Shown here: piece after piece, positions 2,001 through 32,158 of the stretch
How positions within the stretch are numbered: the first letter of the stretch is position 1
How the letters are laid out: each line of letters begins with the position of its first letter
NCBI GenBank assembly: GCA_002030045.1
Contig: LQBI01000031.1
Span: 94,854-158,853 of the forward strand
Direction: 5' to 3'
Source of the DNA: Candidatus Aegiribacteria sp. MLS_C
Lineage (GTDB): Bacteria > Fermentibacterota > Fermentibacteria > Fermentibacterales > JCC-6
DNA length: 64,000 nucleotides
Notes under the pieces: model-generated
What the model saw: the letters and a program-made list of their open reading frames with translations, nothing else
Told to the model about the DNA's origin: nothing
Databases searched by the model: none
Program-made: the position numbers and the translations under genes

Positions 2001-3427
2001 GGAGCCTGACAGCAGCTGCAGCCATCGGTCCGGTGTTCATGGTCTTCATCGCCGCGGCATGTGGCGGTTCCGGCGACGGAGGCTTGCGCGTCTCCGCCGC
2101 GGATTCGGGCACTCAGAAATTCGCGGTTTCCATTCGGGGCGACGATGTGGGCTACATGCAGCTCGACATAGAGGAGTACGGTGAGGATTCACTCCTGATA
2201 ACCCAGACCATCAGCTGGAACATGATCCTCATGGGGAACAGGCGGGACATCGAGATGTCCATGACCGCCGTCACCGATACGACCTACGACCTGGGCAGCA
2301 TGGAGATGATGATGTCCGACGGGTCCGCAGAGATCAATGTCACGGCCGTCAGGCGTGATTCCCTGCTTGTTTCCTCGATAGGCACCGCGGGCAGGGTGAT
2401 AGACAACTCGACAGTGATCGAGGGGGATTACCTCCCTGTGCTGGCCGATCTGGCATGCGCCTCCATGGATTGGACCGAGGGCCAGGAAAGGATCTTTCAG
2501 TCCTTCGATCCCGCCAGCGGAGCGGTTCTATCGGCCACCGCCCTGTGCCAGGGTTACGAGGAGATGGACCTGCTCGGCGACACAGTGGAGGCCGTAAGGC
2601 TCCAGCTGTCCCAGATGGGAACGAGCAACCTGGTCTGGGTTCACGAGGGACAGATAGTCCGTGAGTACGAAGAGGGTCTGGGAATGGAGATGACCCGTGT
2701 CCCGCCTGGACAGGGGGGGGATATAATTGCAACAACCGACCTGTACGAGGTCTTCGCTGTTTCCTCGACCCCCATAGCTGATCCCAGGTCGGTGAGGGAC
2801 AGGACATTCGTCCTCGAGGGAGACATCGACTGGTCCCTGTTCCAGCTGGACATCCCTCCACTGCAGGAGGCGAGGGGCTGCACGGTGCGGGTCTCGAACA
2901 CCGCACCGGACCTTCCGGCGGGGTTCCCTTCGCCGGCGGTTCCGGACAGCCTTGCTGACTACGTTCTTCCCGAACCCATGATACAGTCCGGGGATTCAAC
3001 GATCTGCGCCGGGGCCGCGGAAGTGACCGCCGGCAGCCGTGACGCATGGGAAGCCGCACGCAGGATCTGTTCCTTCGTCGATACTGCGGTGGAGAACACC
3101 CCCACGGTTTCCCTACCCTCCGCTGTGGACGTGATGGAAAACCTCCGCGGCGACTGCAACGAGCACACCATTCTGTTCGTGGCCATGGCCAGGGCGGTCG
3201 GACTGCCTTCGAGGATATGCGCGGGAATAGTCTACCTGGACGGCTCCTTCGGCTACCATGCATGGCCCATGGTGTGGGTGGGCGACTGGGTGGCAATGGA
3301 CCCGACCTTCGGTCAGTACCTGGCCGACGGGACACATGTGATCCTGGCCACGGGGGACCTCCAGTCCCAGTACGTTGTCAATTCCGTGATCGGAAGGCTC
3401 AGCGTCATCGAGCTGATGGAGGAGTGA
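1997..3427 (+). CDS. lipoprotein with C-terminal transglutaminase-like cysteine-protease domain
   Basis: AGGAGG RBS; ATG 1997 overlaps the wecB stop. Signal peptide plus lipobox (…FIAAAC GGS). The C-terminal CNEHTILFVAMARAVGLPSRICAGIVY…GYHAWPMVWVGDWVAMDPTFG fits a transglutaminase-like Cys/His/Asp core. Confidence 0.7.
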   Translation: MRSLTAAAAIGPVFMVFIAAACGGSGDGGLRVSAADSGTQKFAVSIRGDDVGYMQLDIEEYGEDSLLITQTISWNMILMGNRRDIEMSMTAVTDTTYDLGSMEMMMSDGSAEINVTAVRRDSLLVSSIGTAGRVIDNSTVIEGDYLPVLADLACASMDWTEGQERIFQSFDPASGAVLSATALCQGYEEMDLLGDTVEAVRLQLSQMGTSNLVWVHEGQIVREYEEGLGMEMTRVPPGQGGDIIATTDLYEVFAVSSTPIADPRSVRDRTFVLEGDIDWSLFQLDIPPLQEARGCTVRVSNTAPDLPAGFPSPAVPDSLADYVLPEPMIQSGDSTICAGAAEVTAGSRDAWEAARRICSFVDTAVENTPTVSLPSAVDVMENLRGDCNEHTILFVAMARAVGLPSRICAGIVYLDGSFGYHAWPMVWVGDWVAMDPTFGQYLADGTHVILATGDLQSQYVVNSVIGRLSVIELMEE

Positions 3428-4543
3428 ATGGCCTCAGATGCCGAGGTCCTTGCCATGAGGAAAGCCCTCAGGATGGCCTCCAAGGGCAGGGGGGCGGCAT
3501 TTCCCAATCCCATGGTGGGTGCCGTTGTCCTGGACGGGAATGGAGTCGAGGTCGGTGACGGCTTCCACCGGAAATGCGGGGAACCCCATGCCGAGACCGT
3601 GGCCCTGGCCGCGGCGGGGGACAGGGCGAGGGGAGGGACCATGGTGGTCACTCTGGAGCCCTGCTGCCATCAGGGCAGGACCGGACCCTGCACCGAGAAG
3701 ATAATCGGGGCGGGCATCTCCAGGGTCGTAGTGGCCATGCAGGACCCGGACCCGAGGGTGCACGGGGGCGGGATCAGAGCCCTGGAGGAGGCGGGCATCG
3801 ATGTGGAGACCGGTATTCTGGCGGAAAGGGCCGCCGAACTGAACCGATTCTACCTTCATTACGTGAGGACCGGCAGGAGCTGGGTCACCCTGAAGCTGGC
3901 CTTGAGCCTGGACGGCAGGGTGGCGGCAGCTGACGGCGGAAGCCGGTGGATCTCCTGCGAGGAGTCCAGGAAGACTGTCCATAAAAAGAGGGCATCGGTG
4001 TCGGCGGTCATGACCGGGGCCGGTACCGTCCGCCGTGACGACCCCCGGCTCACCGCCAGGGATCTCCCTTTCCCGCTCTGCGAACAGCCGGCAAGGGTAG
4101 TGGTGACCGGTTCCGGAGACCTGGGTGATCCGAAGAGATTCCTGTCCGCTCCGGGAAGGATAATAATAGCCCTGCCCCGGGGAGCGGGCGATCTTCCTGA
4201 GATCATTCGTGGAAGGAGTGACCTGGAGATCTGGGAGCTTCCGAAGGACAGCCGCGGCGGCGTCGACCTGAGGGAACTCCTGGCCAGGACCGCTTCACGC
4301 GGGATGGGGGAAGTGCTCTGCGAATCGGGTCCCGGTCTCGCTGCGAACCTGATGATCGAGGGACTGGTGGATTCGGTCATGTTCTTCACGGCACCGATCC
4401 TCATGGGTAACGGTGGAGTACCCGCCATCGGGGACCTTGGAGTCCGGAGCATGGATGGTGCAATAAGGCTTCGCGGCGTGAGGCGACGAAGGATCGGAAC
4501 GGATCAGCTGACGGAGGGGGAGATTGTTCACGGGTCTGATTGA
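3428..4543 (+). CDS. ribD: bifunctional diaminohydroxyphosphoribosylaminopyrimidine deaminase / 5-amino-6-(5-phosphoribosylamino)uracil reductase
   Basis: CMP/dCMP-deaminase zinc motif (HAETVAL…LEPCCHQGRTGPC) followed by an RibD reductase domain; 371 aa; ends with TGA. Confidence 0.9.
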   Translation: MASDAEVLAMRKALRMASKGRGAAFPNPMVGAVVLDGNGVEVGDGFHRKCGEPHAETVALAAAGDRARGGTMVVTLEPCCHQGRTGPCTEKIIGAGISRVVVAMQDPDPRVHGGGIRALEEAGIDVETGILAERAAELNRFYLHYVRTGRSWVTLKLALSLDGRVAAADGGSRWISCEESRKTVHKKRASVSAVMTGAGTVRRDDPRLTARDLPFPLCEQPARVVVTGSGDLGDPKRFLSAPGRIIIALPRGAGDLPEIIRGRSDLEIWELPKDSRGGVDLRELLARTASRGMGEVLCESGPGLAANLMIEGLVDSVMFFTAPILMGNGGVPAIGDLGVRSMDGAIRLRGVRRRRIGTDQLTEGEIVHGSD

Positions 4544-5135
4544 GGGTACGGGTACGGTGAGATCCCGGTCGGGAAGCTCACTGACGGTTTCCTCGCCTCT
4601 GTCCGGGGAGGTCGTGCCCGGAGACAGCTTTGCTGTGGACGGTTCCTGCCTTACGGTGACGGGTTCGGCGGCGGGTTCGATGAGTTTTCAATGTTCCGGA
4701 GAGACTCTTTCAAGGACGGTGATCCAGTGGTACACCACAGGGGTCAGGGTCAACCTGGAGAGGCCGCTGCTCCCCTCGGACAGGCTTCACGGCCACCTGG
4801 TGACGGGCCATGTGGACGAGACGGCCCGTTTACTGCGCGTTCAGAGATCCGGCGGCGGCATGACGGCATGGATCTCCTATTCCCCGGAGTCATCAGTGCT
4901 TCTCGTCCCCAGGGGATCAGTGGCCGTGAGCGGAGTGAGCCTTACGGTAGCGTCACTGGAACCCGGCATGTTCTCCGTTGCGCTGATACCGGAGACCCTT
5001 GCGAGGACAACTGCGGACGGATGGCGTCCGGGCACCAGGGTGAACCTGGAGTTCGACCTGATAGGCAAATACGTGCGGAGGCAGGCTGAAGCCGCCTCTG
5101 CTGCTGCAGGATTGAGGGATCATCTTGAAGGGTAA
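4524..5135 (+). CDS. ribE: riboflavin synthase alpha subunit
   Basis: [12 protein letters not shown]… N-terminus with a duplicated lumazine-binding half; overlaps ribD by 20 nt in another frame. Confidence 0.85.
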
Positions 5136-6363
5136 TGAGAACGGAGCGATCGCGGGGGCTCCCGAGGCCATCGAGGCCATAGCCGCCGGCAGGATGGTGG
5201 TCGTGGTGGACGACGAGAACAGAGAGAACGAGGGTGACCTGGTGATAGCAGCCCAGATGTGCGATGCCGGAGCAGTCAACTTCATGGCCATGGAGGCCAG
5301 GGGACTGATATGCCTTTCGATGGAGAGGGAAGACCTGGAGCGGCTGGGTATCCACGAGATGGTACCCCGGAACACTTCCCTCCATGATACCGCCTTCATG
5401 GTGAGCATCGACGCAAAGGAGGGCGTATCAACAGGAATCTCGGCCCACGACAGGGCCAGGACCATCGCAGTCGCCATCGATCCCTCCTCCAGGGTCGACG
5501 ACCTCGCCCGACCCGGACACATCTTCCCGCTGGCCGCCAGGCCCGGAGGTGTCCTTTCGAGGACGGGCCACACGGAGGCGGCGGTGGACCTGGCCAGACT
5601 GGCCGGGCTCGTGCCCGCCGGAGTGATCTGCGAGATAATGAACAGGGACGGTACCATGGCCAGGCTCCCCGAGCTCAGGGAATTCTGCCGGGAGCACGGG
5701 CTGGTGCTGACCACGGTTGAGGAACTGGTCCGCTACAGGCGCAGGACCGAGAAACTGGTGCGAGAGGTTGCTGCTTCAGTTCTGCCCACGGACTACGGGA
5801 CCTTCCAGCTGAGGATATTCGAGAGCATAACCGACGGAGAGGTCCATGTGGCGCTGGTGAAGGGTGAGGTGGCTGGAATGGAGAACGTGCTTGTCAGGGT
5901 GCATTCCCAGTGCCTGACAGGCGACGTGTTCGCCTCCAGGAGGTGCGACTGCGGAAGCCAGCTGCACGCCGCGCTGAGGAGGATAGAGTACGAGGGGATG
6001 GGAGTGGTACTTTACATGGCCCAGGAGGGTCGCGGGATCGGACTGGCCAACAAGATAAAGGCATACCATCTCCAGGACCATGGTCTGGACACCGTGGAGG
6101 CCAACGAGCGTCTGGGATTCGCCCCCGATCTCAGGGACTACGGTACCGGTGCGCAGATCCTGTCCGAGCTGGGCCTGTCCACCATAAGGCTCATGACGAA
6201 CAACCCGAGGAAAATAGTCGGCCTGAGGGGCTATGGGCTCGAGATCACGGAGAGGGTGGGTATCGAGGTGAAACCCACCAACGAGAACATCAGGTACCTG
6301 AGAACAAAGAAGAATAAGCTGGGACACCTGCTGGAGGAGGTCGACGATGACCTGGATACATGA
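5125..6363 (+). CDS. ribBA: bifunctional 3,4-dihydroxy-2-butanone-4-phosphate synthase / GTP cyclohydrolase II
   Basis: DHBP synthase motifs ([14 protein letters not shown]) followed by GTP cyclohydrolase II (CDCGSQL…[12 protein letters not shown]); 412 aa. Confidence 0.9.
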
Positions 6364-19398: not shown

Positions 19399-20186
19399 GT
19401 GGACGGAGCCCTCCCCGTCGATGGCCGGCAGTTTTCCGTTCGCATGGAAACGCAGCCCGTCCAGGTACTCTCAGTAACGGTCCCCCCCCCGGCGTCGAAA
19501 CCCGTCAGGAACATGTAGAGGCTCATGCCGAGACTGTCGGTGACCCCGGTGAGAAGGACCCCTCCGTCAGGGGTCTCGGCCATGTCACCGAGGCCTGTCA
19601 CGGGTCCGCCCTGAAGACGGAAAGCTGTGGCCATGATGACGCTGCCCGACGCATCCGGCCGGTAAAGCTTCCACCGGTCGCTTCCGGGAGGAGGTTCCCG
19701 GGCGGCCAGGCAGCCGCAGTTCACAGACGGCACGACGAAGGGGCCTGCGTCCCCGTAATAGTATGCGGAATCCAGCAGAACGGTCCACAGATTGTCTCCC
19801 TCGGGACCGAACCTGGAGACACCGGTCAGGATCATGCACTCGGAAGGGTGCTCTCCGGACAGGGAGACTCCCCCGTATTCTGAAAACGTCCCCGGCGGGA
19901 CCGGTAGAGGCGTCACCACGGACGGTCGCACCGTGCAGCCGGTGTCCATCGGGACCAGACACCTGAGCGGTCCGTCGACCCCATCCTTAACGAGTTCTAT
20001 CACCGCTGACGATCCGGCCGTGTCCGTTACCATGGACAGGGGACGCCATCCCTCGGAGTTCAGGTCACCGGCCACGGTCCAGTCCGCGGGCGGGACCGCG
20101 GCATTCATGGCAAGCACAATGATGACGAAGCTCATGGTTCCTCCTCTGCGCGCATGAAAACCCCGCTGTAAGATATTCCCTTTCAA
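19395..20186 (-). CDS. beta-propeller (SBBP-type) repeat secreted protein, 5' fragment with signal peptide; the frame is lost near 19450-19480
   Basis: Signal peptide MSFVIIVLAMNAAVPPADW. Repeat units (…DNLWTVLLDSAYYYGD…, …SDRWKLYRPDASGS…). The last ~30 codons are Ser/Thr/Arg-rich out-of-frame junk. A C9 homopolymer sits at 19482-19490. Confidence 0.55.
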   Translation of the reverse strand: MKGNILQRGFHARRGGTMSFVIIVLAMNAAVPPADWTVAGDLNSEGWRPLSMVTDTAGSSAVIELVKDGVDGPLRCLVPMDTGCTVRPSVVTPLPVPPGTFSEYGGVSLSGEHPSECMILTGVSRFGPEGDNLWTVLLDSAYYYGDAGPFVVPSVNCGCLAAREPPPGSDRWKLYRPDASGSVIMATAFRLQGGPVTGLGDMAETPDGGVLLTGVTDSLGMSLYMFLTGFDAGGGTVTESTWTGCVSMRTENCRPSTGRAPST

Positions 20187-20248
20187 TGAGTTTCAGTTGA
20201 TCGATCCTGAACTGGAGAAGAAGTACCGCGACACAGTATATTCAACTA

Positions 20249-21412
20249 ATGACGAAGGTATTCAGCGCATCATGGGGACAGCTCGAGAAGGCCGGCTCAA
20301 ACGTCGGCGACGAAGCCATCTTTGCTTCACAGGCCAGGGACCTGTCGACTCTGGAGGACGTAAGACTGGGTGTGATGTCCGCCGATCCACAGAGGACCAG
20401 GGTTCTGTACGGTGCGGAACCTTTCGACGTCTCACGCGGAAGGCTCCGGGCCATGGCCAGAGGAGTGAGGTGGGCCGACGTCGTCATTGTGGGTGGCGGA
20501 GAACTGGCACAGGACAGGTCATCGCTCCTGTACACACCCTTCAATCTTCATCCCATCAGGCTTGCCAGGAAGTACAGGAAACCCGCCTTTGCCTGGTCGG
20601 TGGGAATAGGACAGGGCGCGGAGCTGGCAAGATGGACCCCGGGGCAGCTCAGGAAATGGCTCGGTTACTGCTGCGGAGTGACGGTACGGGACAGGCCCTC
20701 CTACGAGACCCTGATGTCACTGGGACTGGATCCGGAAAGGGTCAAGCTGGCATCGGACTCCACCTTCACCCTGGCGGGAGACTTCGCCGGTACCCATGGC
20801 TCGCCGGAGATACTGGGAGTCGCCCTTAGGGATGTCTCCAACAGACGTGGGAAACTGCTTCCTCTGGAGGTCCGGCGCCGACTCGGGCTCTACCGCGAAC
20901 CGGATCGGACGGAGGAGAGACGGGTATGGGCCGGTCTGCTGGACAGGCATATCGAGACCCGTGGAGGCGAGATCCGCTTCTTCCCGTTCCATACCGGAAG
21001 CCTTTCGAATTCGGACGACAGCGAGTGCATATCGGTGATGTCAATGATGGAGCACAGCGACCAGGCTTCTGTCGTGATGCCCGGGGACCTCAGGTCATTC
21101 CTGAACTCCATCTCAGAGTGCAGGGTCATGATAACCGTCCCGCTCCACGGATCCATATTATCCCTGGTCACGGGCACCGTTCCAATCGCAGTCCCCTACG
21201 CCTCCAAGGGTTACAGGTTCATGGAGGAGGCAGGTCTTGGCGGTCTCACCGTGAACACCGGTATCCAGGGCTGGCAGGAGGCCCTCTGGGAACTGCTGGA
21301 TAGGACCTGGGAGGCGTCGAGGGACATCCTGCAGGATATCGCGGAGACTCGAAGCCGGCTTGCAGAGATGAGCACGGCGACCCTGGAGCTCTTCCGCAGG
21401 ACATGCATCTGA
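20249..21412 (+). CDS. polysaccharide pyruvyl transferase family protein (CsaB/WcaK-like)
   Basis: N-terminal GSNVGDEAI motif (the GNxGDEAI of pyruvyl transferases) and overall ~390-aa architecture. Confidence 0.65.
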   Translation: MTKVFSASWGQLEKAGSNVGDEAIFASQARDLSTLEDVRLGVMSADPQRTRVLYGAEPFDVSRGRLRAMARGVRWADVVIVGGGELAQDRSSLLYTPFNLHPIRLARKYRKPAFAWSVGIGQGAELARWTPGQLRKWLGYCCGVTVRDRPSYETLMSLGLDPERVKLASDSTFTLAGDFAGTHGSPEILGVALRDVSNRRGKLLPLEVRRRLGLYREPDRTEERRVWAGLLDRHIETRGGEIRFFPFHTGSLSNSDDSECISVMSMMEHSDQASVVMPGDLRSFLNSISECRVMITVPLHGSILSLVTGTVPIAVPYASKGYRFMEEAGLGGLTVNTGIQGWQEALWELLDRTWEASRDILQDIAETRSRLAEMSTATLELFRRTCI

Positions 21413-21416
21413 CAGG

Positions 21417-22253
21417 ATGATGCTACCGGGTATTCACGCCTCCGTCAGCGGAGGGCTCAATCGGGCCCTGGAAGTCCTGGGGTCATCGGGTCTGCCCTGC
21501 GGCCAGATATTCACCTCGAACCAGAGGCGCTGGAAGGGCCGCGAGGTGAAGGAACGCGAGAAGGAGGAGTTTTCGCGGACCCCCATCAGTGTCATATCCC
21601 ACACATCCTACCTGATCAATCTCGCCTCGTTCAGAAACGAGGTCAGGGAACGATCCTTCCTCGCCCTGAGCGAGGAACTCCTGAGAATGCACCAGCTGGG
21701 CATACACTGGACCGTCCTTCATCCCGGCGCACACCTGGGTGAAGGGGATGCCACGGGAATAAGGGCCGTGGCCGCTGCGGTGAGAAGCATCCTGCAGGAT
21801 GCACCGCCCGACACCGGAGTGCTATACGAGAACACCGCGGGCCAGGGTACGGTGGTGGGACGTTCCTTCGAGCAGCTGTCGGACCTCATGGACGGGACGG
21901 GCATTCCCGGGAGGACCGGGATATGCCTGGACACCTGCCACGCATTCGCGGCGGGTTACGACCTGTCCACCAGGAACGGAGTGGACATGGTGATGGAGGA
22001 GTTCGACTCCGTCGTAGGGTCCTCCCGTATAAGGGCCTTCCACATGAACGACTGCCTTGGGACATGCGGGAGTCACCTTGACCGCCATGCCAGGCTCGGC
22101 GGTGGTTTGCTGGGACTGGACCCCCTCCGGTACCTTGCCTCTTTGGAGGATTTCGACGGTATCCCCGGAATAGTCGAGACCCCCGGTACCGACGGGGACA
22201 GGGTCGCCGACGCCCTTGCACTCACTGCCGGCGAGGGAGTGTCCAGGGGGTGA
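21417..22253 (+). CDS. nfo: endonuclease IV (deoxyribonuclease IV)
   Basis: GIHASVSGGL…QIFTSNQRRW…HPGAHLG…LYENTAGQG…CLDTCHAFAAGYD…RAFHMNDC is the Nfo/AP-endonuclease-2 motif series. Confidence 0.85.
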   Translation: MMLPGIHASVSGGLNRALEVLGSSGLPCGQIFTSNQRRWKGREVKEREKEEFSRTPISVISHTSYLINLASFRNEVRERSFLALSEELLRMHQLGIHWTVLHPGAHLGEGDATGIRAVAAAVRSILQDAPPDTGVLYENTAGQGTVVGRSFEQLSDLMDGTGIPGRTGICLDTCHAFAAGYDLSTRNGVDMVMEEFDSVVGSSRIRAFHMNDCLGTCGSHLDRHARLGGGLLGLDPLRYLASLEDFDGIPGIVETPGTDGDRVADALALTAGEGVSRG

Positions 22254-22475
22254 CGCCTCCACCCGGTCCCGCTGCAAGGATCGGGACACGACTGCTGCCT
22301 GGAAACTGCCTGCAGTATCCGATCGATGCTGAAGAGGCAGATTGAGGAGAACCATCGCTGCTTTCCTGTGCATCGTGTTCATGTTATTATTCATCGTCGA
22401 ACATCAGACAGGCAGGAAGGCAGGTCGATTGCTCCACCGCGACATCAGGGTCACGACCGGACCGGGGGGTCAGTC

Positions 22476-23528
22476 GTGAAGGTCGCGGTAACGGCGGATG
22501 TCCATCTGGGAAGGGAAGGAGAGCATCCCGAGAGGCTGGAGGCCCTGGGCTGCATCCTCGATACCGCCGAAAGCAGGGGAATCCCGATCCTGGTCATCGC
22601 CGGCGATCTCTTCGACCAGAATTCCACCGGCTACTCGGGCTTCGAGCAGCTGTGCCGGCGACACCCCGGCATACAGGTGCATCTCATACCCGGCAACCAT
22701 GATCCGGACATATCCGGAAAGACCGTCGTAGGCGACAACATAACGGTCCACCGTCAGGTCACATCGGTCGACCTGGACGGTGTCTCAATGGTCTTCGTGC
22801 CCTATTGCGAGAACTCCGGCATGTGTGATAGCCTGGGGAACCTGAATACGGGCGGGCGCTGGGTCCTGGTCGGCCACGGCGATTACCTGGGGGGGCTGAA
22901 GGAGCGCAATCCCTACGAGAAGGGGACCTACATGCCCCTGTACAGGAAGGACCTTGAGCTGCTCAAACCCTGGCGGGTCTTCCTGGGCCACATTCACAAG
23001 CCCCTGAAGGACTCCTCCGTCTACTATCCCGGATCCCCCTGCGGGCTGGACATAAACGAAACGGGCAGGAGGAGCTTCCTTCTCTTCGACACCTCTACCG
23101 GGAAGGTGGATAGGGAGACCGTTGATACAGCGGTGATCTACTTCAGGGAGAGTTTCCTGGTCATTCCCGACGAACTGGAACTGGACAGGCTCAGGAAACA
23201 GGCCGAAGCCAGGACAGCCGCATGGGGGCTGACAGCCGGTGAAAGGCCGAAGGCCAGGGTAAGGGTGGAGGCCAGGGGGTTCTCATCGGACAGGGAAGCC
23301 GTGATGGAATGCCTACGGGAATCATTCTCCGACTACACCTTCCATTCCGGCGAACTCCCGGACATATCCGGCCTCCGCATCGCCGGGGACGGAAGACGGA
23401 CCACCATTGCACGCAGGGCCATCGAACTCATAGAAGACCTGGACTGGGAATACGGAGGCGAGCAGCCTGACAAGGAGCAGGTCATGGAAGCGGCCCTTGG
23501 AATAATCTTCGGGGACGGGGCCGGATGA
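22476..23528 (+). CDS. sbcD: SbcD/Mre11-like metallophosphoesterase nuclease
   Basis: GTG start gives MKVAVTADVHLG. It is followed by AGDLFD…GNHD…GHGD…GHIH, the Mre11-type phosphoesterase motifs I-VI. Confidence 0.7.
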   Translation: MKVAVTADVHLGREGEHPERLEALGCILDTAESRGIPILVIAGDLFDQNSTGYSGFEQLCRRHPGIQVHLIPGNHDPDISGKTVVGDNITVHRQVTSVDLDGVSMVFVPYCENSGMCDSLGNLNTGGRWVLVGHGDYLGGLKERNPYEKGTYMPLYRKDLELLKPWRVFLGHIHKPLKDSSVYYPGSPCGLDINETGRRSFLLFDTSTGKVDRETVDTAVIYFRESFLVIPDELELDRLRKQAEARTAAWGLTAGERPKARVRVEARGFSSDREAVMECLRESFSDYTFHSGELPDISGLRIAGDGRRTTIARRAIELIEDLDWEYGGEQPDKEQVMEAALGIIFGDGAG

Positions 23529-25657
23529 TGCCCGTCAGGATCCGGAGCATGAGGATCATGAGGGAGGGCCCTCTCCAGAAGGACCTTGACCTTGAACCGG
23601 CGGACCTGAACCTGATATACGGCAGGAACGAGACGGGCAAGACATACGTCGTCGAGGCCATGATATCGCTGCTCTTCCGGACCGGCAGGGATTCCCGCTG
23701 GTCCAGCAGGTCAACCAAGTCCAGGCCGGCGACCGTGAGGGAGTGGGAACCCAGAGGGGAGATCGAGGTGACCGGGCTCGGGGATGGAGCCACGGTCTTC
23801 ACGGCAGGCAGTCCAAGGATCGAGGACCTGGCGGAGAGGGGCGACGGAATGCCATCGGACCTCTCCAGGCTGCTGGTGGTCAGGGCCGGCGACACCAGGC
23901 TCTCCGATGCCAGGGACGGAGTCGGTGACGAAGTCCTGAGGACCTACCTCTCGGGAAAGAGCGTTCTGGACGAGGTGGAAGCGAACATCGGTCAGGAGAC
24001 GGTGAAGAACGCCGTCATAACCGATGGCCGCATAGAGGCCGATAACAAGGGTCTTTACCGGGACAGACTCACCCTCGAGAGGGAGCTACGATACCTGGAC
24101 GAGCTGCGCATGGTGGTGGACGAGAACGCCTCCCTGGTCCGGCTCAATTCCCTGGAGAGAATGAAGGGCGAGCTGGAGGAACGGCTGAGGGACCTGGAGG
24201 ACGCAAGGAGACACCAGGCCTTCCTGCTCCGGGAGGAACGGTCCAGGCTCCTTCTGGACCTCGAAGAACTGCCATCAGAGGAGCAGATCATCCAGCTGGG
24301 TACCGACATCAGTCTCTACCGATCCAGGAACAGGGACCTCCAGCGGCTGAGTGCGGAAATCAAGGAAGCCTCCTCCACCGGCGGTGAACTGGAATGGCTG
24401 GAGCAGGCAAGGGAGGAGTACCTATCCGGTACAGAGTCAGAAGGCAGGGAGCTGATTCCCGCTTCCGCCTGCAGGTACCTCGCACTTCTCTTCCTCCTTA
24501 TGGCGGGTGCCGGAGCATTCTTCGGCAGGGCTCTCACCCTTGCCGGAACCCTGCTTGCAGCCGCATGCCTGGTTTACCTCCTTTGGAGCCGCGGAAAGCG
24601 CCCTTCCCCGGCGGAGACTGAAATTAGGAGGGCTATCGAGAGGGAGTTCCAAAGGAGGTTCGGCAGGGAGCTGACCGATACCGCTACCCTGAAGATGGTC
24701 CTCAGGGAACTGGAGAGCGAGAGGATACGATCCGCCACCGCCGTCGAGAACAGGGACAGGACTGCGGAGGAGGTCGAGGGGGTCGGGAAGCGCGTTGAGG
24801 GGAACATCTACATTCTTGCAGGCAGGGAAGTCCCTCCCGATGAATGGGACGTGGTCCTGGACGGGTTCAGGGCATCGAGGAAGAAACTGCAGGAGGAGCT
24901 GGCCTCGGTCGACGGGGTCATAGCCACTCTGGGAGTACCGCTTGAGGAGAGCTTCCCGCAGCCTTCCACAGCTGAATGGGACCAGAGGGCCTACATCGAT
25001 GTCAGGGAACGTCTGGCGGCTGTAAACGGTGAACTGGACAGGGAGAGGAAGGGCCTCGAGGAACTCAAGGTGGACATATCGGTTGCGACCGGCCTGAATT
25101 CCAGGGATATTCGCGAGCTTATAACGGCGCTGGAGGACAGGAGACGTCAACTCGCGGAGGAACACCGCCTGGTCACCGCCAGGATCCTTGCCGGGAACAC
25201 CGTCTACAGGACCATATGCCAGTACAGGGAACAGGAGAACGCAAGACTCGGCCAGGCCCTGGAATCCCCCGAGATAGTAAACCCGCTGCGCATGATGACC
25301 GGAAGGTACAACGGCATCAGGATGACAGACGACGGTGACCTGTACCTGAAGACCGACGGAAGGGGCGAGTATCCCCTGCACCATCTCAGCACCGGCGCCG
25401 CCGAGCAGGTCTACATGGCCCTCAGGACCGGTTTCGCCAGCCTGTCCTTCGGAGAGCCGGCCTTCCTGCTGCTTGACGACGCATTCCAGCATTCCGACTG
25501 GGACAGGAGGAAGAACCTGGTGGACCAGGTCACGTCAATGGTGGAGGATGGGTGGCAGGTGTTCTACTTCACCATGGATGAGCACCTGAGGAAACTATTC
25601 GACGGGAGGGGAATGGAGATGGGCAGCGGCCGCTACCGTTACCTCAGCCTTGATTAG
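23525..25657 (+). CDS. sbcC: SbcC/Rad50-like ATPase with an internal two-helix transmembrane hairpin
   Basis: Walker A GRNETGKT; long coiled-coil-like central region; C-terminal signature/Walker B/D-loop (LSTGAAEQVYMALRTGFA…FLLLDDAFQHSD). In place of a zinc hook it has the hydrophobic stretch YLALLFLLMAGAGAFFGRALTLAGTLLAAACLVYLLW. Confidence 0.7.
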   Translation: MMPVRIRSMRIMREGPLQKDLDLEPADLNLIYGRNETGKTYVVEAMISLLFRTGRDSRWSSRSTKSRPATVREWEPRGEIEVTGLGDGATVFTAGSPRIEDLAERGDGMPSDLSRLLVVRAGDTRLSDARDGVGDEVLRTYLSGKSVLDEVEANIGQETVKNAVITDGRIEADNKGLYRDRLTLERELRYLDELRMVVDENASLVRLNSLERMKGELEERLRDLEDARRHQAFLLREERSRLLLDLEELPSEEQIIQLGTDISLYRSRNRDLQRLSAEIKEASSTGGELEWLEQAREEYLSGTESEGRELIPASACRYLALLFLLMAGAGAFFGRALTLAGTLLAAACLVYLLWSRGKRPSPAETEIRRAIEREFQRRFGRELTDTATLKMVLRELESERIRSATAVENRDRTAEEVEGVGKRVEGNIYILAGREVPPDEWDVVLDGFRASRKKLQEELASVDGVIATLGVPLEESFPQPSTAEWDQRAYIDVRERLAAVNGELDRERKGLEELKVDISVATGLNSRDIRELITALEDRRRQLAEEHRLVTARILAGNTVYRTICQYREQENARLGQALESPEIVNPLRMMTGRYNGIRMTDDGDLYLKTDGRGEYPLHHLSTGAAEQVYMALRTGFASLSFGEPAFLLLDDAFQHSDWDRRKNLVDQVTSMVEDGWQVFYFTMDEHLRKLFDGRGMEMGSGRYRYLSLD

Positions 25658-25696
25658 ACCGGTAACCGGAAGCGGCCGCTACCGTTACCTCAGCCT
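25625..25696. repeat. 26-bp direct duplication (AGCGGCCGCTACCGTTACCTCAGCCT at 25625-25650 and 25671-25696) spanning the sbcC-like stop codon
   Basis: Exact repeat read directly; the first copy encodes the last 8 codons of the sbcC-like gene. Confidence 0.6.
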
Positions 25697-25749
25697 GGGT
25701 ACACCCGCCGGCCGGGAGGGGGATCCGACCATGAGCAAAGGGTGGTGCA

Positions 25750-28575
25750 ATGCTGCTGGAGTACCTGCCTGAAGATGCCGGCTCCGTGCCGGCGCCGGCC
25801 GGGGACACTTCCACCGGGACGGTAATCCTCAGGGGCAGCGGGTGCAGGGTGGTCTTCTCGTCTGCGGATGACGGGGACGATGTGATCATAGAGAGGGACG
25901 ACGGCACACGGCACAGGGTGGATCTCCCCTCCAGGCTTCCGTACAGGCACTTGTCGGACATCAGTCCCTCTGGATATCTCCTTGTCGTGGTGTCCCGCAC
26001 CAGGGCCAGGGCGGTGGAGCTTCCATCAGGAAGGACCAGGATCATCCTGGAGGGTCCCTGGATGACCGGTACGGCCTGCCTGGCCGAGGGGTTCGTTGCC
26101 GTACTCACACGGGAAGGCAGATTCACCCTCGACATGAGGGATCCCGACGTGGCAGCGCTATCCAGCCTGCGGGGGGTGGATCCGTCCTCGGGCACGGTTA
26201 CCTTTGGATGCTCGGCGATGATCCACCTGCTGGACGCGAATGGTCCCGGAAGGCTGGTGCACAGCTTCGAGTGCCGGGCGGACCACATCTCCTCCGTCCT
26301 CGAGGGAAGGGTGGCGGTCCTGAGGAGGTCGCCTCCCGATGCGGATTCCTGGGGAACGCTGTTCCTGGGGTTCGCCGAAGGTTTGTTCTCGGTCCTGGGC
26401 AAGCACCCGGAAGACCTGGGCCGTATCCTCGAGGCGGGCGGTCTGGTCCGCGGCGAGAAAGGTGTCGGGGTAAGAGGCCTGAGGAAGGCCCTGGAAACCA
26501 TGGAGCCCTTCAGGATAAGGAAGATAGTGGAGGGGATGGGGCCGGATCCGGCAGCGGACCCGCCTCCGGTGGAGATAGTATCAAGGAAGGGCAGGATCAG
26601 GCTGGCACTGACCCGCGGGGAGGAGTCAGCGGTGCCGCTTCCGGAAGGGGCAAGGGAAGCCCTGGGTCTGGGTGTAGACGACTGGATAGCCGACTCCTCC
26701 CCGACGGGCACATTCCCGGTGATGAGATACCTCGACGGTATGTACAGGGTGTCCCTCGCATGCACGGTGGACGGCGGCGTGGCGGAGATCAGGCCGGACA
26801 GGGAACTGTCCTGCCATACCATGTGCTACGGGTTCTCTCCCGACGGGAACCGGGTGCTGCTATCCATGTACGGAGGCAGCTACCTGGTGGACACCCGAAC
26901 CGGCGTAGTGGAGGTGGCGGCTCCCCAGTTCAGGGAGCCACTTGCCGCGGAGATACTGGACGATGATTCCTTCGCCGTACTCAGCAGGCTGGAGGCCGAC
27001 TGCAGCCAGCTGGACATCTGGATGAGGCGGGAAGACTGCTTCCGACCCGTTTCATCGCTGTCCGCGGGACTTCTGGACATGCTGTTCCACCTCCACGGCA
27101 CGGGTTTGATAATGCTCACCTTCAGGCACATGCCCCCGGAGGACTCGGTAACCGTGGTCCTCCGCATCGACCCTGAGCGGGGGTCTGTTCCGGTGGACCT
27201 GCTGGATCTCAGGACAGGGGAAGCATGGAGCAACGGAGGCCGCTGCTTCCTGACGGGCGCCGACGGATCCCGCTACGAGATGTTCCTCCTGGGGGAGGGG
27301 GAAGAGCGTCCACCCCTCTCGCTCTCCTTCATCCGGCGGCAGGAAGAGCGGCCCTCCTCGGTGATGGTCTTCCGCTCCGGGGAGGACGGGCACAGGTACG
27401 GCTACATCGACTGCGAGGGCCGATGGGTCATGGAGCCCAGGTTCCTGGAAGCCGCCGGTTTCGCCGGCGGTCTGGCCGCAGCCGCCATGCCCCCCCACGG
27501 GTTCAGGGGCCTGGTCGATGCCTCCGGAAGGACGGTCATGCCCTTCCACTCCTCCTGGGTGGGAGAGCCCGCGGAAGGGTACAGGAGGGTGGCCATGGGC
27601 GGATACCCATCCTCAGGCGAACCGGCGGACTCACTCTTCGGCGTCTTCGGTCCCGTGGAGGGCTGGGTGCTGGAACCCGTTTACCCTGCTGCGGGGGAAT
27701 TCAGACAGGGCAGGATTAGGGTCCGCTACATGGACGGTGACGAGAACTGGGCCCGTGCCGACGGCACAAGGCTGACCGGTGAAAGCTACTCGGAATGCGG
27801 CGATTTCTCCGAGGGCCTGGCCAGGTTCCGGAAAGGAGGCAGGTGCGGTTTTGCTGACCTGGAGGGCCGGATGGTGATACCTCCCAGGTTCGAGGAGGCG
27901 ATGGACTTCAGCTGCGGCCTTGCCGGCGTGAGGCTGCAGGGACCCCTGTGGAGGTGTGTGGACACCGGGGGGAGCGTTGTTGTCACCAGGGGTTACGACG
28001 AGTTCTTCCCCCACTCGGAAGGGGTGGCCTGCGTCCGAACGGGCAATTGCTGGGGATACGTCGATACGCGGGGGGAAGAACCCTTCGGAATGTGCTTCCA
28101 GAGGACCTTCAACTTTGCCGGAGGAATGGGAGTGGCGGTCATGGAGGGAAGATGGCACTTCCTGACGGTCTCGGGCGTGATCACTCCGGGATGGGATGCC
28201 GCATACGCTCCTTTCGAAGGGATCGGCGTTTACAGGCAGGACGGTCTCTTCGGCTACGCGGACCGCAGCGGCGAGGTTGTGACGGGTCCCGTCTACACTG
28301 CGGCCCGGAACTTCAATCAGGGGCTGGCCGCCGTGATGTCAGGCGGCAGATGGGGCTACATCGACCGGCACGGCCAGTGGGCCGTGGAACCGCGATTCTC
28401 CGGAGCCGGGGATTTCTCCGAGGGACTGGCGCCGGTGACGGAGACGGCCGGGGGACCATGGGGCTATATAGACCGCGAGGGGCAGATGAGGATACACCCG
28501 TACTTCTCGGAGGCCGGCTCCTTCGGCGGCGGACTTGCGGCGGCGGCTGCTTCCCTGAAAGGTGATGACCGTTGA
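25750..28575 (+). CDS. large cytoplasmic protein with C-terminal WG-containing (KWG-like) repeats, function unknown
   Basis: 941 aa, no signal peptide. The C-terminal half carries multiple WGYID/WGFAD…G.….P.F…GLA repeats (e.g. RWGYIDRHGQWAVEPRFSGAGDFSEGLAPV). Confidence 0.6.
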   Translation: MLLEYLPEDAGSVPAPAGDTSTGTVILRGSGCRVVFSSADDGDDVIIERDDGTRHRVDLPSRLPYRHLSDISPSGYLLVVVSRTRARAVELPSGRTRIILEGPWMTGTACLAEGFVAVLTREGRFTLDMRDPDVAALSSLRGVDPSSGTVTFGCSAMIHLLDANGPGRLVHSFECRADHISSVLEGRVAVLRRSPPDADSWGTLFLGFAEGLFSVLGKHPEDLGRILEAGGLVRGEKGVGVRGLRKALETMEPFRIRKIVEGMGPDPAADPPPVEIVSRKGRIRLALTRGEESAVPLPEGAREALGLGVDDWIADSSPTGTFPVMRYLDGMYRVSLACTVDGGVAEIRPDRELSCHTMCYGFSPDGNRVLLSMYGGSYLVDTRTGVVEVAAPQFREPLAAEILDDDSFAVLSRLEADCSQLDIWMRREDCFRPVSSLSAGLLDMLFHLHGTGLIMLTFRHMPPEDSVTVVLRIDPERGSVPVDLLDLRTGEAWSNGGRCFLTGADGSRYEMFLLGEGEERPPLSLSFIRRQEERPSSVMVFRSGEDGHRYGYIDCEGRWVMEPRFLEAAGFAGGLAAAAMPPHGFRGLVDASGRTVMPFHSSWVGEPAEGYRRVAMGGYPSSGEPADSLFGVFGPVEGWVLEPVYPAAGEFRQGRIRVRYMDGDENWARADGTRLTGESYSECGDFSEGLARFRKGGRCGFADLEGRMVIPPRFEEAMDFSCGLAGVRLQGPLWRCVDTGGSVVVTRGYDEFFPHSEGVACVRTGNCWGYVDTRGEEPFGMCFQRTFNFAGGMGVAVMEGRWHFLTVSGVITPGWDAAYAPFEGIGVYRQDGLFGYADRSGEVVTGPVYTAARNFNQGLAAVMSGGRWGYIDRHGQWAVEPRFSGAGDFSEGLAPVTETAGGPWGYIDREGQMRIHPYFSEAGSFGGGLAAAAASLKGDDR

Positions 28576-28577
28576 GA

Positions 28578-28991
28578 ATGACTGTTCTGACGTGCGCCAT
28601 GCTGACGGCAGCCGCCCTGGCCGGGGTGGCGGCGGGTTCCGTCCATCCGGCAGATGCCCTGGAGATACACGGACTACTGCTGGAGCACACGGGCGAGGAT
28701 CCTCTCGTGACGCTGGCCGGACCGGACTCCGCCATAGTCCTGTTCGTCGTCATGGGAGGGGAATGGATGGATGACGGTGTCCAGTGGGGGCAGCTGCTGA
28801 CAGCAGCATCGGTCGCGGTCCGCATGGACACCGGGAGGGAATGGCGGCTGAGGGACGTAGCGGTCTCCTTTGGGGACGCGTGGTGCAGGATGTCCTCAGA
28901 GCACGCCGGGTCAATCGCCTCGGCGGGACCCGACGCAGCGCTCCGTCCGGAAGTCTGCCGCTCCCTGGTCGAGGTCAGGATACTGGAATAG
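28578..28991 (+). CDS. small secreted hypothetical protein
   Basis: Start overlaps the previous stop (TTG 28572 / ATG 28578). Signal-like N-terminus MTVLTCAMLTAAALAGVAAGS. Confidence 0.45.
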   Translation: MTVLTCAMLTAAALAGVAAGSVHPADALEIHGLLLEHTGEDPLVTLAGPDSAIVLFVVMGGEWMDDGVQWGQLLTAASVAVRMDTGREWRLRDVAVSFGDAWCRMSSEHAGSIASAGPDAALRPEVCRSLVEVRILE

Positions 28992-29002
28992 CCGGGAGCG
29001 CT

Positions 29003-30064
29003 CTACCTCGTGGTTTCGTCGAGGGCACCGGTGAACTTGTCCAGCTGTTCCAGGAAGAAGGCGTTCCCCGGGTCCAGCTCCAGCGCCTTTGTTTCCCATT
29101 CAACCGCCGTGGCCGGATCGCCCGATGCGTAGTAGGACTCCGCGACCGTGTCCATGATGTTCGGATCCTCAGGAGCCAGCTCGCTTGCCATAAGTGCTAT
29201 CTCAACCGCCCGTTCAGGATGGAGCTTCCTGATGGCCAGCTCCCACGCGAGACCGTTGAGGTCCTGGGCGTCCGGCTCTCCGGAGGCCAGGTAGTCCTCC
29301 ATGATGTCAAGGGCGTAATCAGCCTCCGGGTATCCCGCGTCTATGTACACCGGGAACACGAACCACATGCACCACTTGGAGTATATCCTCCCCAGGTCGC
29401 CGATGGGGTCCCGGGCGTCGGCGACCCTTATGTCAACGAGCAGGTCGCTGCTTCCCTGGTAGCCGCCGTCCCGGCGGTAGACCACCAGGGCCGCAGACTG
29501 CCTTCCCCTGCTGTCGCCGCCGGCCGCATCGCCCGCCGCCAGGGCCGCAAGGAGCCTGTCCCCCAGCGGTCCCTGATCGCTCAGGAAGGCGTCCTCCATC
29601 TCCTGCACAACTTCGGGGCCGGTCAGGATGTTGCCCTGTATGGCGTAGCCGGGACCGGTAACGCTCCCGGCCCAGTCGATGGTACCGCTTCCGGTGAAGG
29701 AGGCGGAGCCGCCCCTTGCATCGACTATCCCCAGCTGCCTCACAGAGCTGTCCGGATCCGAGGAGATCAGGCTGTCCAGGGTCTCCTGTGCGGAGGTACC
29801 GGTCATGAGCAGCCCGACTCCCAGAGGTCCGAACATCGCATTGGTCTGCGCCTGGGTGGCGACGGCACCCGCCCCGGGTTCTCCCCAGGGTACTATGTAG
29901 CCCACGTCCAGCACCTTCGACGCCACTCCCACTCCCAGCTCACCGGTAAGGGTGTCGATGGCCACGATGGAGAAGGTGGAAGTGTAGATCTCCCCGGGAA
30001 AGCCTTCGCACGCCGGCGGGAAGGCCAGCACCAGAACAGGCAGAAAATGGATCATCGGGAACAC
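29003..30064 (-). CDS. DUF1028 (Ntn-hydrolase-like) domain protein fused to TPR repeats, secreted
   Basis: Signal peptide. TFSIVAIDTLTGELGVGVASKVLDVGYIVPWGEPGAGAVATQAQTN matches the DUF1028 N-terminus; the C-terminus has TPR-like helical repeats. Confidence 0.7.
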   Translation of the reverse strand: MFPMIHFLPVLVLAFPPACEGFPGEIYTSTFSIVAIDTLTGELGVGVASKVLDVGYIVPWGEPGAGAVATQAQTNAMFGPLGVGLLMTGTSAQETLDSLISSDPDSSVRQLGIVDARGGSASFTGSGTIDWAGSVTGPGYAIQGNILTGPEVVQEMEDAFLSDQGPLGDRLLAALAAGDAAGGDSRGRQSAALVVYRRDGGYQGSSDLLVDIRVADARDPIGDLGRIYSKWCMWFVFPVYIDAGYPEADYALDIMEDYLASGEPDAQDLNGLAWELAIRKLHPERAVEIALMASELAPEDPNIMDTVAESYYASGDPATAVEWETKALELDPGNAFFLEQLDKFTGALDETTR

Positions 30065-31285: not shown

Positions 31286-32158
31286 CTACCTGTTGACCAG
31301 GACGCAGTCCTCAAGGCCGACAAGTCCGAAGGACTCGCCGGCGATTGTTCCCCTGATCCTGACACCGTCCCTCGACGCCACCATGGCCGAATCGCTCGTT
31401 TCCGGGATCGCCCCCGTCATCTCGCAGGCCACGTACTTGGTGTAGATGTCACCGGACCCGGCAAGGTCCACCCTGACCGTAACGCCGTAATCCGTTGTGG
31501 AAGTCGTGGTCGAGTGGTAGTAACCCTCCACCACGACCCGGCGGCCGATCCACGTGTTGAAGAGTTCGTGGAACTCAGCGACAGGGATAGGCGTCGTACC
31601 GTTGCAGGCATAGGGGCTCGTCGCGGTACCGGGAGCCGCCTCCTCCGCACCCTGGACAAGCGAGGCACCGGTGAGCATCAGGTCCCCAGTCCAGTAGTAG
31701 TCCACGGTGCCGCGTACCGTGAGCAGCCGGTCCCCGCCCACCGGAACTCCCTGGACGGAGTCGAAGGCGAACGTGGCCAGCTCCTGGTCGCCACCGGGAG
31801 TTCCCACAAGGGCTACCTCATCCTCGATCGTCATGCTGTCGCCGTAGAAGATGCCGGGATATCCCTGCAGCGTTACCTCGAGTCCGTCCCAGGCGAAAAA
31901 GGCCTCATAGAGGGCGGCTGCACCCACCGGCGTATCTGCCGTTACCTCGGCCGGATCAAGCTTGCCCTCGGGGTAGAGGGGTTCAGGGGCAGCAGGTTCC
32001 TGTCCGGTATCCTGCTCCTGCATCGAAGCGGTCTCCGTGCTGTCCGGAGCCTCGAGTACTCCGGTGTCTCCGGAAGAATCCCCGTCGTCCTCAGGACCTC
32101 CTCCGCACGCCGGGACCATGAGCACCAGAAAAGCCATCGCAACCGCAGTTCTCTTCAT
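31286..32158 (-). CDS. lipoprotein with internally duplicated domain, unknown function
   Basis: Signal peptide plus lipobox (LVLMVPACGGG). Two similar halves (…LYEAFFAWDGLEVTLQGY… and …FHELFNTWIGRRVVVEGY…). Confidence 0.55.
   Translation of the reverse strand: MKRTAVAMAFLVLMVPACGGGPEDDGDSSGDTGVLEAPDSTETASMQEQDTGQEPAAPEPLYPEGKLDPAEVTADTPVGAAALYEAFFAWDGLEVTLQGYPGIFYGDSMTIEDEVALVGTPGGDQELATFAFDSVQGVPVGGDRLLTVRGTVDYYWTGDLMLTGASLVQGAEEAAPGTATSPYACNGTTPIPVAEFHELFNTWIGRRVVVEGYYHSTTTSTTDYGVTVRVDLAGSGDIYTKYVACEMTGAIPETSDSAMVASRDGVRIRGTIAGESFGLVGLEDCVLVNR

Follow-up and report, generated by a model that had tools for sequence, protein, structure and literature searches.

We analysed a stretch of 64,000 nucleotides (nt) from a metagenome-assembled genome (MAG) of Candidatus Aegiribacteria sp. 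MLS_C (LQBI01000031.1, 94,854-158,853), hereafter the window, to which all positions given below refer. The subject of this analysis is a pair of adjacent genes on its plus strand. The first, at 22476-23528, begins with GTG, matches the Pfam family Metallophos and encodes a 350-amino acid (aa) SbcD/Mre11-like metallophosphoesterase (AVO35_06630), and the second, at 23525-25657, encodes a 710-aa Rad50/SbcC-like ABC ATPase of the YhaN (PF13514) type that is 100% identical to AVO35_06635. The stop codon of the phosphoesterase gene and the start codon of the ATPase gene overlap by 4 nt, the junction reading ATGA. The pair lies within a string of six plus-strand genes, preceded by a pyruvyl transferase gene and nfo and followed by genes for a WG-repeat protein and a small protein, with DnaE- and LonB-like genes flanking this string upstream and a DUF1028 gene downstream on the opposite strand.

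The start of the phosphoesterase gene was assigned to the GTG at 22476 because its homologues are all 347-359 aa long and share the N-terminus MK[IV]A[IV]TADVH, and because the deposited protein is likewise the 350-aa form; the longest open reading frame (ORF), which starts at 22326 and would encode 400 aa, was rejected. A GGGGGG run sits 7-12 nt 5′ of the chosen start. All phosphoesterase motifs were invariant among 16 homologues drawn from the Aegiribacteria-type group and about 10 other lineages, namely D8-x-H10, G43-D44, G73-N74-H75-D76, H134-G135-D136 and G171-H172-x-H174. The closest solved structures in a profile search of the PDB were Escherichia coli SbcD (E 1.1e-15) and Mre11 (E 1.5e-10), and the TIGR00619 sbcd model scored 39.2 bits, far under its cut-off of 77.65.

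The ATPase carries both half-sites expected of a Rad50-type enzyme, their conservation being assessed in alignments of 14-27 relatives. Its plus-strand motifs comprise a Walker A sequence, GRNETGKT (aa 33-40; 23621-23644), in which N35, E36, G38 and K39 are invariant in the 24- and 27-sequence alignments; an ABC signature, LSTGAAEQ (aa 621-628; 25385-25408), with S622 and G624 invariant; and a Walker B/D-loop segment, FLLLDDAFQHSD (aa 647-658; 25463-25498), with D651 and D658 invariant and D652, A653, F654 and Q655 nearly so. An AlphaFold2 (AF2) model built on the 27-sequence alignment (predicted local distance difference test score, pLDDT, 82.6) divides the head between aa 1-171 and 595-709 and places long helices at 176-300 and 363-579, giving modelled helical arms of about 125 and 215 aa. 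Foldseek returned Chaetomium Rad50 (7zr1_C) as the best match to this model (E 4e-12), followed by MukB, cohesin, Smc5/6, JetC and LmuB, and in a PDB profile search with the ATPase family Rad50 chains were the sole ATPase matches (E 2e-7). Rad50 family models scored 28 bits or less on the window protein against cut-offs of 847-1000. The match to PF13514 (AAA_27) was marginal, scoring 26.2 bits where the gathering cut-off is 22, and restricted to aa 5-52; a precomputed PF13514 match is present in most homologues of the ATPase.

The distinguishing feature of the ATPase is a predicted transmembrane helical hairpin at the tip of the coiled coil (aa 318-354; 24476-24586, plus strand), consisting of two helices of 17-20 residues with a single Arg between them. 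With a Kyte-Doolittle 19-residue maximum of 2.02, it is the sole hydrophobic segment in this protein, and a central CxxC was looked for in the window ATPase and not found. In the AF2 model the tip helices span residues 313-333 and 335-354. A hairpin was present in 14 of 14 aligned relatives, in which its position, length and hydrophobicity are kept while its sequence varies; in every one of the 16 loci recovered beyond the Aegiribacteria group (Kyte-Doolittle maxima 2.3-3.0); and in all 144 representatives that ranked highest in an exhaustive profile search, where a central CxxC was present in none (0/144). Altogether 207 of the 207 family members examined keep the position of the hairpin but not its sequence. 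Across these 207 members the median length of the charge-free span is 44 aa, the helices are usually split by one charged residue, and the flanks contain 2.4 and 2.8 K+R per 12 aa, compared with a background of 1.7, with D+E depleted. Judged from sequence, this pattern is what characterises a transmembrane helical hairpin, suggesting that the segment inserts into the membrane with both of its ends in the cytoplasm.

The family to which the ATPase belongs is extensive, a profile search returning 912 cluster representatives at E<=1e-30, in size classes of ~700 aa and ~875-900 aa. Within the clade of the window protein bit scores are at least 588, whereas those to other YhaN-like proteins are 125 or less. 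In every locus examined a phosphoesterase of ~350 aa lies directly 5′ of the ATPase, the genes abutting or overlapping, and this holds for all 16 loci checked in about 10 lineages other than the Aegiribacteria group. The pair occurs in MAGs labelled Syntrophales/Syntrophobacterales, Gemmatimonadetes, Anaerolineae, Actinomycetota, Spirochaetaceae, Bacteroidales and Synergistota, as well as in the cultured Leptolinea tardivitalis. A complete pair was also seen at 2059-5207 of an archaeal MAG labelled Thermoplasmatales (locus L014; CAZESS010000007.1), which points either to horizontal acquisition by an archaeon or to an error in binning. In Aegiribacteria-type loci the order LonB-pyruvyl transferase-nfo-pair-DUF1028 is held from 84% down to 45% ATPase identity. 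A third conserved partner was sought in a Pfam census of 91 neighbouring ORFs at the 16 outside loci, and none was recurrent; the highest counts were Fer4 (3), PHP (2) and HTH_3 (2). Neither a tblastn search of plasmids and phages with the ATPase nor a pattern scan of IMG/VR gave a match. The domain identities, the intact catalytic motifs and the conservation of both the hairpin and the pairing are observed features of the family, and in that census the pair has no other conserved partner.

Comparison with canonical SbcCD/Mre11-Rad50 revealed the same overall design, with an Mre11-type nuclease possessing all phosphoesterase motifs, a split Rad50-type head, an antiparallel coiled coil and adjacent, coupled genes. 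The family nevertheless differs in that the zinc hook at the apex of the ATPase is replaced by a transmembrane-type hairpin and in that the window proteins fall well short of the cut-offs of the NCBIfam SbcD and Rad50 models. The coiled coil of the window ATPase also appears much shorter than that of SbcC.

A closer resemblance is to the YhaN/YhaO (SbcE/SbcF) group. In Bacillus subtilis the SbcD-like yhaO gene lies upstream of yhaN, and the product of yhaN, SbcE, lacks a CxxC and has coiled-coil arms of ~300 aa each and a unique central domain that is hydrophobic in its first half and insoluble when expressed (PMC2811018). The family shares the order of phosphoesterase then ATPase, is without a CxxC and, between its coiled-coil arms, has a central domain of hydrophobic character, likened to that of SbcE by description. 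It matches PF13514 above the gathering cut-off, and some family members are named YhaN by the Joint Genome Institute (JGI). In an hhalign comparison the family aligned with hairpin-bearing relatives of 711-1313 aa, two of them JGI-named YhaN proteins and one from a Firmicutes MAG, at a probability of 99.9% (E 1.7e-36) over 198 columns covering coiled coil and C-terminal head. PF13514-matching relatives of 830-1313 aa have a central hydrophobic hairpin as in the family. Separately, five PF13514-matching proteins of ~1150 aa (P0074, P0076, P0081, P0090 and P0103) have neither hairpin nor CxxC; because this subset of distant YhaN-like proteins lacks it, the PF13514 group is not universally hairpin-bearing.

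Several differences set the family apart from B. subtilis SbcEF. The window protein is 710 aa long with arms of about 125 and 215 aa, shorter than those of SbcE; no yhaM-like gene lies downstream of the family pairs in the census of the 16 outside loci; and the family ranges over about 10 lineages rather than Firmicutes. In the literature the SbcE/SbcF group is connected with double-strand-break repair or competence. The yhaONM genes are listed in the LexA/SOS regulon (PMC3896406), whereas the elements upstream of the pair are sigma-54-like and not of the LexA-controlled type. Taken at the level of sequence, these comparisons support placing the ~700-aa family as a compact, separate clade of the YhaN/YhaO group. 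Part of this had been anticipated in an earlier, sequence-only reading of the same DNA. Its six plus-strand ORFs are all present, as judged from the ORF listing and family assignments. Its description of a 710-aa SbcC/Rad50-like ATPase with both half-sites was borne out by the Walker A, signature and Walker B motifs and by the top Foldseek match, and that of a hydrophobic two-helix hairpin where SbcC has its CxxC hook by aa 318-354, which contain no CxxC and are conserved as a hairpin in the family. Its assignment to the YhaO/YhaN (SbcEF) type, not canonical SbcCD, agrees with the PF13514 match, the hhalign result and the gene order.

The DNA around the pair contains two sets of candidate elements. 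The 222-nt spacer upstream of the pair (22254-22475) holds conserved blocks resembling sigma-54 promoters, the clearest of which is AGGCAGGTCGATTGCT (GG-N10-GC; 22418-22433, plus strand), a putative promoter element located 43 nt 5′ of the start of the SbcD-like gene. It scores 17.5 of 19.5 against TGGCACG-N4-TTGCW, a value of at least 17.5 being reached at just 4 sites when both strands of the window are considered. Locus L007, the closest relative, retains the block, and comparable sites lie 5′ of the pair in L005 (score 18.5, about 66 nt upstream of 6934) and L003 (17.5, at 6218-6233), the latter next to a divergently transcribed gene for a sigma-54 activator. No sigma-54 activator gene was found within the window. 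A second block, GGAAC-N6-ATGCTT, is kept in seven relatives; the corresponding window element (22347-22362) has lost its GG, as it reads GAGAAC. Scanning 20000-29200 for sigma-70 promoters and intrinsic terminators gave no more hits than expected by chance.

At the other end of the pair, in a region examined over 25622-25713, a GC-rich stem-loop spans the stop codon of the ATPase gene (25625-25696, plus strand). It contains two copies of the palindrome AGCGGCCGCT together with ACCGTTACC/GGTAACCGG, the stem measuring about 18 bp and the loop enclosing the ATPase stop codon. The same region holds a 25-nt exact direct repeat (25626-25650 and 25672-25696), AGCGGCCGCT occurring in each copy, such that the last ATPase codons are duplicated 46 nt downstream. 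L007 has the same repeat layout with a spacing of 47 nt and with the sequence changed in both copies, its contig ending inside the second copy. We rejected the repeat as an alternative C-terminus of the ATPase: the spacing differs between the window (46 nt) and L007 (47 nt), so that the frame is not maintained. The stem-loop may mark the 3′ end of an operon, and stem and repeat could represent a terminator-like element or a rearrangement scar at a slot of variable content. Rfam, at its gathering threshold, matched no RNA family in the window. Elsewhere in the window ARAGORN reported a tRNA-Arg(CCT) at 31967-32057 that, at 91 nt, is unusually long for its type; Rfam reports no tRNA.

The slot between the ATPase and DUF1028 genes varies among relatives, being empty, holding a small protein gene alone or, as in the window, holding both a WG-repeat gene and a small protein gene. 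The WG-repeat protein of the window (941 aa; 25750-28575, plus strand) begins 92 nt after the ATPase gene, so that the close spacing given in the sequence-only reading stood and its figure of 93 bp did not. Also as described there, the protein combines an uncharacterised N-domain with WG repeats, the C-terminal ~400 aa matching WG_beta_rep (205.7 bits). The N-domain (aa 1-545; 25750-27384) had no Pfam match even at E<=1, showed no internal repeat by BLASTP and returned only itself in a homologue search over 5.8-billion proteins; single-sequence AF2 gave an unusable model (pLDDT 34.5). The sole relative found was the protein of locus L008, with 47% identity and about 200 extra N-terminal residues. 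L008 has the same gene order as the window, with a WG-repeat protein of 1122 aa and an ATPase identity of about 59-60%, and these two are the only syntenic Aegiribacteria-type loci, of nine, in which a WG-repeat gene directly follows the pair. It was not found downstream of the pair in L001/L002, L009, L011, L027, L028 or L029, or in any of the 16 loci from outside the Aegiribacteria-type group.

The small protein (139 aa; 28572-28991, plus strand) has a hydrophobic N-terminus resembling a signal peptide, as judged from hydropathy, and matched no Pfam family. Homologues downstream of the ATPase gene were found in L001 (10144-10587), L003 (10443-10877), L008 (13540-13995) and L011 (4756-5187), with identities of 27-42% by alignment and 33-47% over the stretches aligned by tblastn. 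They share a conserved domain of ~110 aa whose motifs include GPDSxLVLFVALGGEW and DVAVSFGDxWCR. The small protein was not found in three close relatives (L009, L027 and L028) or outside its lineage, and appears to be a lineage-restricted, frequent neighbour of the pair, putatively exported. On the other side, the polysaccharide pyruvyl transferase (20249-21412, plus strand; PF04230, 89.9 bits) is kept beside the pair only in Aegiribacteria-type loci and shows no detectable link to it, and nfo (21417-22253, plus strand; TIGR00587, 230.9 bits against a cut-off of 129.65) adjoins the pair only in those loci and L003. We count none of these four (pyruvyl transferase, nfo, WG-repeat protein, small exported protein) as a part of the machine, only as neighbours; the functional unit comprises two genes instead of six or three, with the WG-repeat gene an occasional neighbour.

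We consider it probable that the pair specifies an inner-membrane-tethered complex of the Mre11-Rad50 type that acts in the processing or repair of chromosomal DNA ends. The two genes would form a translationally coupled operon for an Mre11/SbcD-type nuclease and a Rad50/SbcC-type ATPase, and the two proteins would assemble into a heterotetramer like SbcCD. The hairpins would insert into the inner membrane and pair there, replacing the apex dimerisation provided by the zinc hook. Because the apex carries the transmembrane hairpin, the ATPase half-sites and the nuclease would be cytoplasmic, the heads and the bound nuclease hanging from the membrane on a coiled-coil stalk of ~125 residues. By analogy with SbcCD and Mre11-Rad50, ATP binding would close the heads on a DNA end or hairpin, which the phosphoesterase would then cut, and anchoring would keep the enzyme from acting on DNA away from the membrane. 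Membrane insertion and its topology, complex formation, DNA as the substrate and a role in repair are what we infer for the pair, and its molecular identity is far more secure than its biological role.

Among the other explanations, the sequence-only reading had raised that of a single three-component repair or defence system composed of the nuclease, the SMC-like ATPase and the 941-aa WG-repeat protein. The three genes share a strand, the spacer before the WG-repeat gene is short and L008 repeats the order, but this reading fails because the WG-repeat gene follows the pair in two of nine syntenic loci and in none elsewhere. The GC-rich stem-loop and repeat scar between the ATPase and WG-repeat genes, the variable content of the slot and the want of detectable relatives of the N-domain beyond the L008 protein argue in the same direction, and we regard such a trio as scarcely credible. 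Little better is the prospect that the pair acts on the cell envelope, as a membrane ATPase with a phosphoesterase for lipids or sugar phosphates. Calcineurin-like phosphoesterases do include lipid and nucleotide-sugar enzymes, and the pair has a pyruvyl transferase gene upstream and a putative exported protein downstream. Yet it is SbcD and Mre11, and not LpxH or CpdA types, that come closest to the phosphoesterase among solved structures, the ATPase is Rad50-like by both sequence and fold, and neither the pyruvyl transferase nor the small protein is kept by the pair beyond the Aegiribacteria-type group and L003, all of which makes an envelope function very improbable. It is also improbable, if less so, that the protein is soluble and SMC-like, with the hairpin serving as a hydrophobic, buried hinge for dimerisation. 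The single-residue turn is very tight for a transmembrane hairpin, the hairpin is modelled with moderate confidence, and the paper on SbcE, which describes its central domain as hydrophobic and insoluble, never uses the word transmembrane and reports no membrane localisation (PMC2811018). A buried hinge would, however, have to accommodate two charge-free helices of ~20 residues with Kyte-Doolittle maxima of median 2.5 and up to about 3.0, positive-charge enrichment in the flanks, and sequence that varies while hydrophobicity and length stay, a pattern of lipid-facing helices and not of a specific interface.

A role against foreign DNA, in which a membrane-tethered end sensor and nuclease would destroy linear DNA entering by phage injection, conjugation or transformation, has more in its favour. 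Rad50/SMC-like ATPases with nucleases form the core of Lamassu and Wadjet, LmuB and JetC are among the fold matches, the pair is patchily spread over about 10 lineages including one archaeal MAG, the phosphoesterase diverges fast, and SbcE makes polar foci in competent cells, where DNA enters (PMC2811018). The likeness to Lamassu extends to weak LmuB profile matches and to LmuACB structures among the fold matches. When eight proteins of the locus were submitted to PADLOC, however, only weak, generic ATPase matches of the LmuB/PbeC/Mad8 type were returned, the LmuB matches reaching 42 bits at best and including PDLC03859 (E 1.3e-11), and there was no match for the phosphoesterase or any neighbour; similarity to LmuB is expected of any Rad50/SMC head with a coiled coil. 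The locus differs from Lamassu in having no LmuA or LmuC homologue, in the Mre11-type phosphoesterase that partners the ATPase, in the predicted transmembrane hairpin of the latter and in its conserved housekeeping synteny. That synteny is stable in the Aegiribacteria-type group, unlike variable islands, the neighbour census of the 16 outside loci contained no defence genes, and the pair was not found in plasmids, phages or IMG/VR. These results lend no support to the anti-phage interpretation raised by the sequence-only reading. The synteny and the missing mobile-element matches do not support a mobile defence island, and a chromosomal role against foreign DNA is compatible with them; we judge such a role unlikely.

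Several points weigh against the membrane-tethered repair complex that we favour. We know of no member of the ~700-aa clade that has been studied, the only studied representative of the wider group being B. subtilis SbcE/SbcF. Function is carried over from SbcEF at about 20-25% identity, in the heads only, and the likeness is drawn through description and through relatives. For SbcEF the phenotypes are mild and biochemistry failed, both proteins being insoluble (PMC2811018), and a nick-repair screen found it dispensable. Upstream of the pair, the promoter-like elements resemble sigma-54 promoters and not an SOS box. In addition, the phosphoesterase in L007 is 67% identical to that of the window, where Lon is 95% and the ATPase 84% identical, and in L008 the corresponding values are about 40%, 85% and about 60%. 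The phosphoesterase thus appears from its sequence to be diverging much faster than its neighbours, which would be unusual for a core repair enzyme. Finally, the call of membrane insertion is a prediction based on hydropathy, charge bias and the AF2 model, in which pLDDT within the hairpin is just 65-77.

Mre11-Rad50 and SbcCD machines are understood as soluble, with their coiled-coil tips joined through a zinc hook. The family described here keeps the catalytic head and the nuclease yet always ends its coiled coil in a membrane-type hairpin. Biochemistry of SbcEF failed because both proteins were insoluble, and an analysis of SbcEF as a membrane protein was not found in the literature searched. 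The compact clade of 700-aa proteins would offer simpler constructs, and L. tardivitalis a cultured host, for studying anchored complexes of the Rad50 type. More speculatively, and with considerable doubt, the replacement of the zinc hook by the hairpin may make the pair a membrane gatekeeper that acts only on DNA ends at the inner membrane, processing transforming DNA or destroying injected or conjugated DNA, possibly under sigma-54 control. If this proved true, the family would represent a distinct functional class of Mre11-Rad50 complexes and not a redundant repair paralogue.

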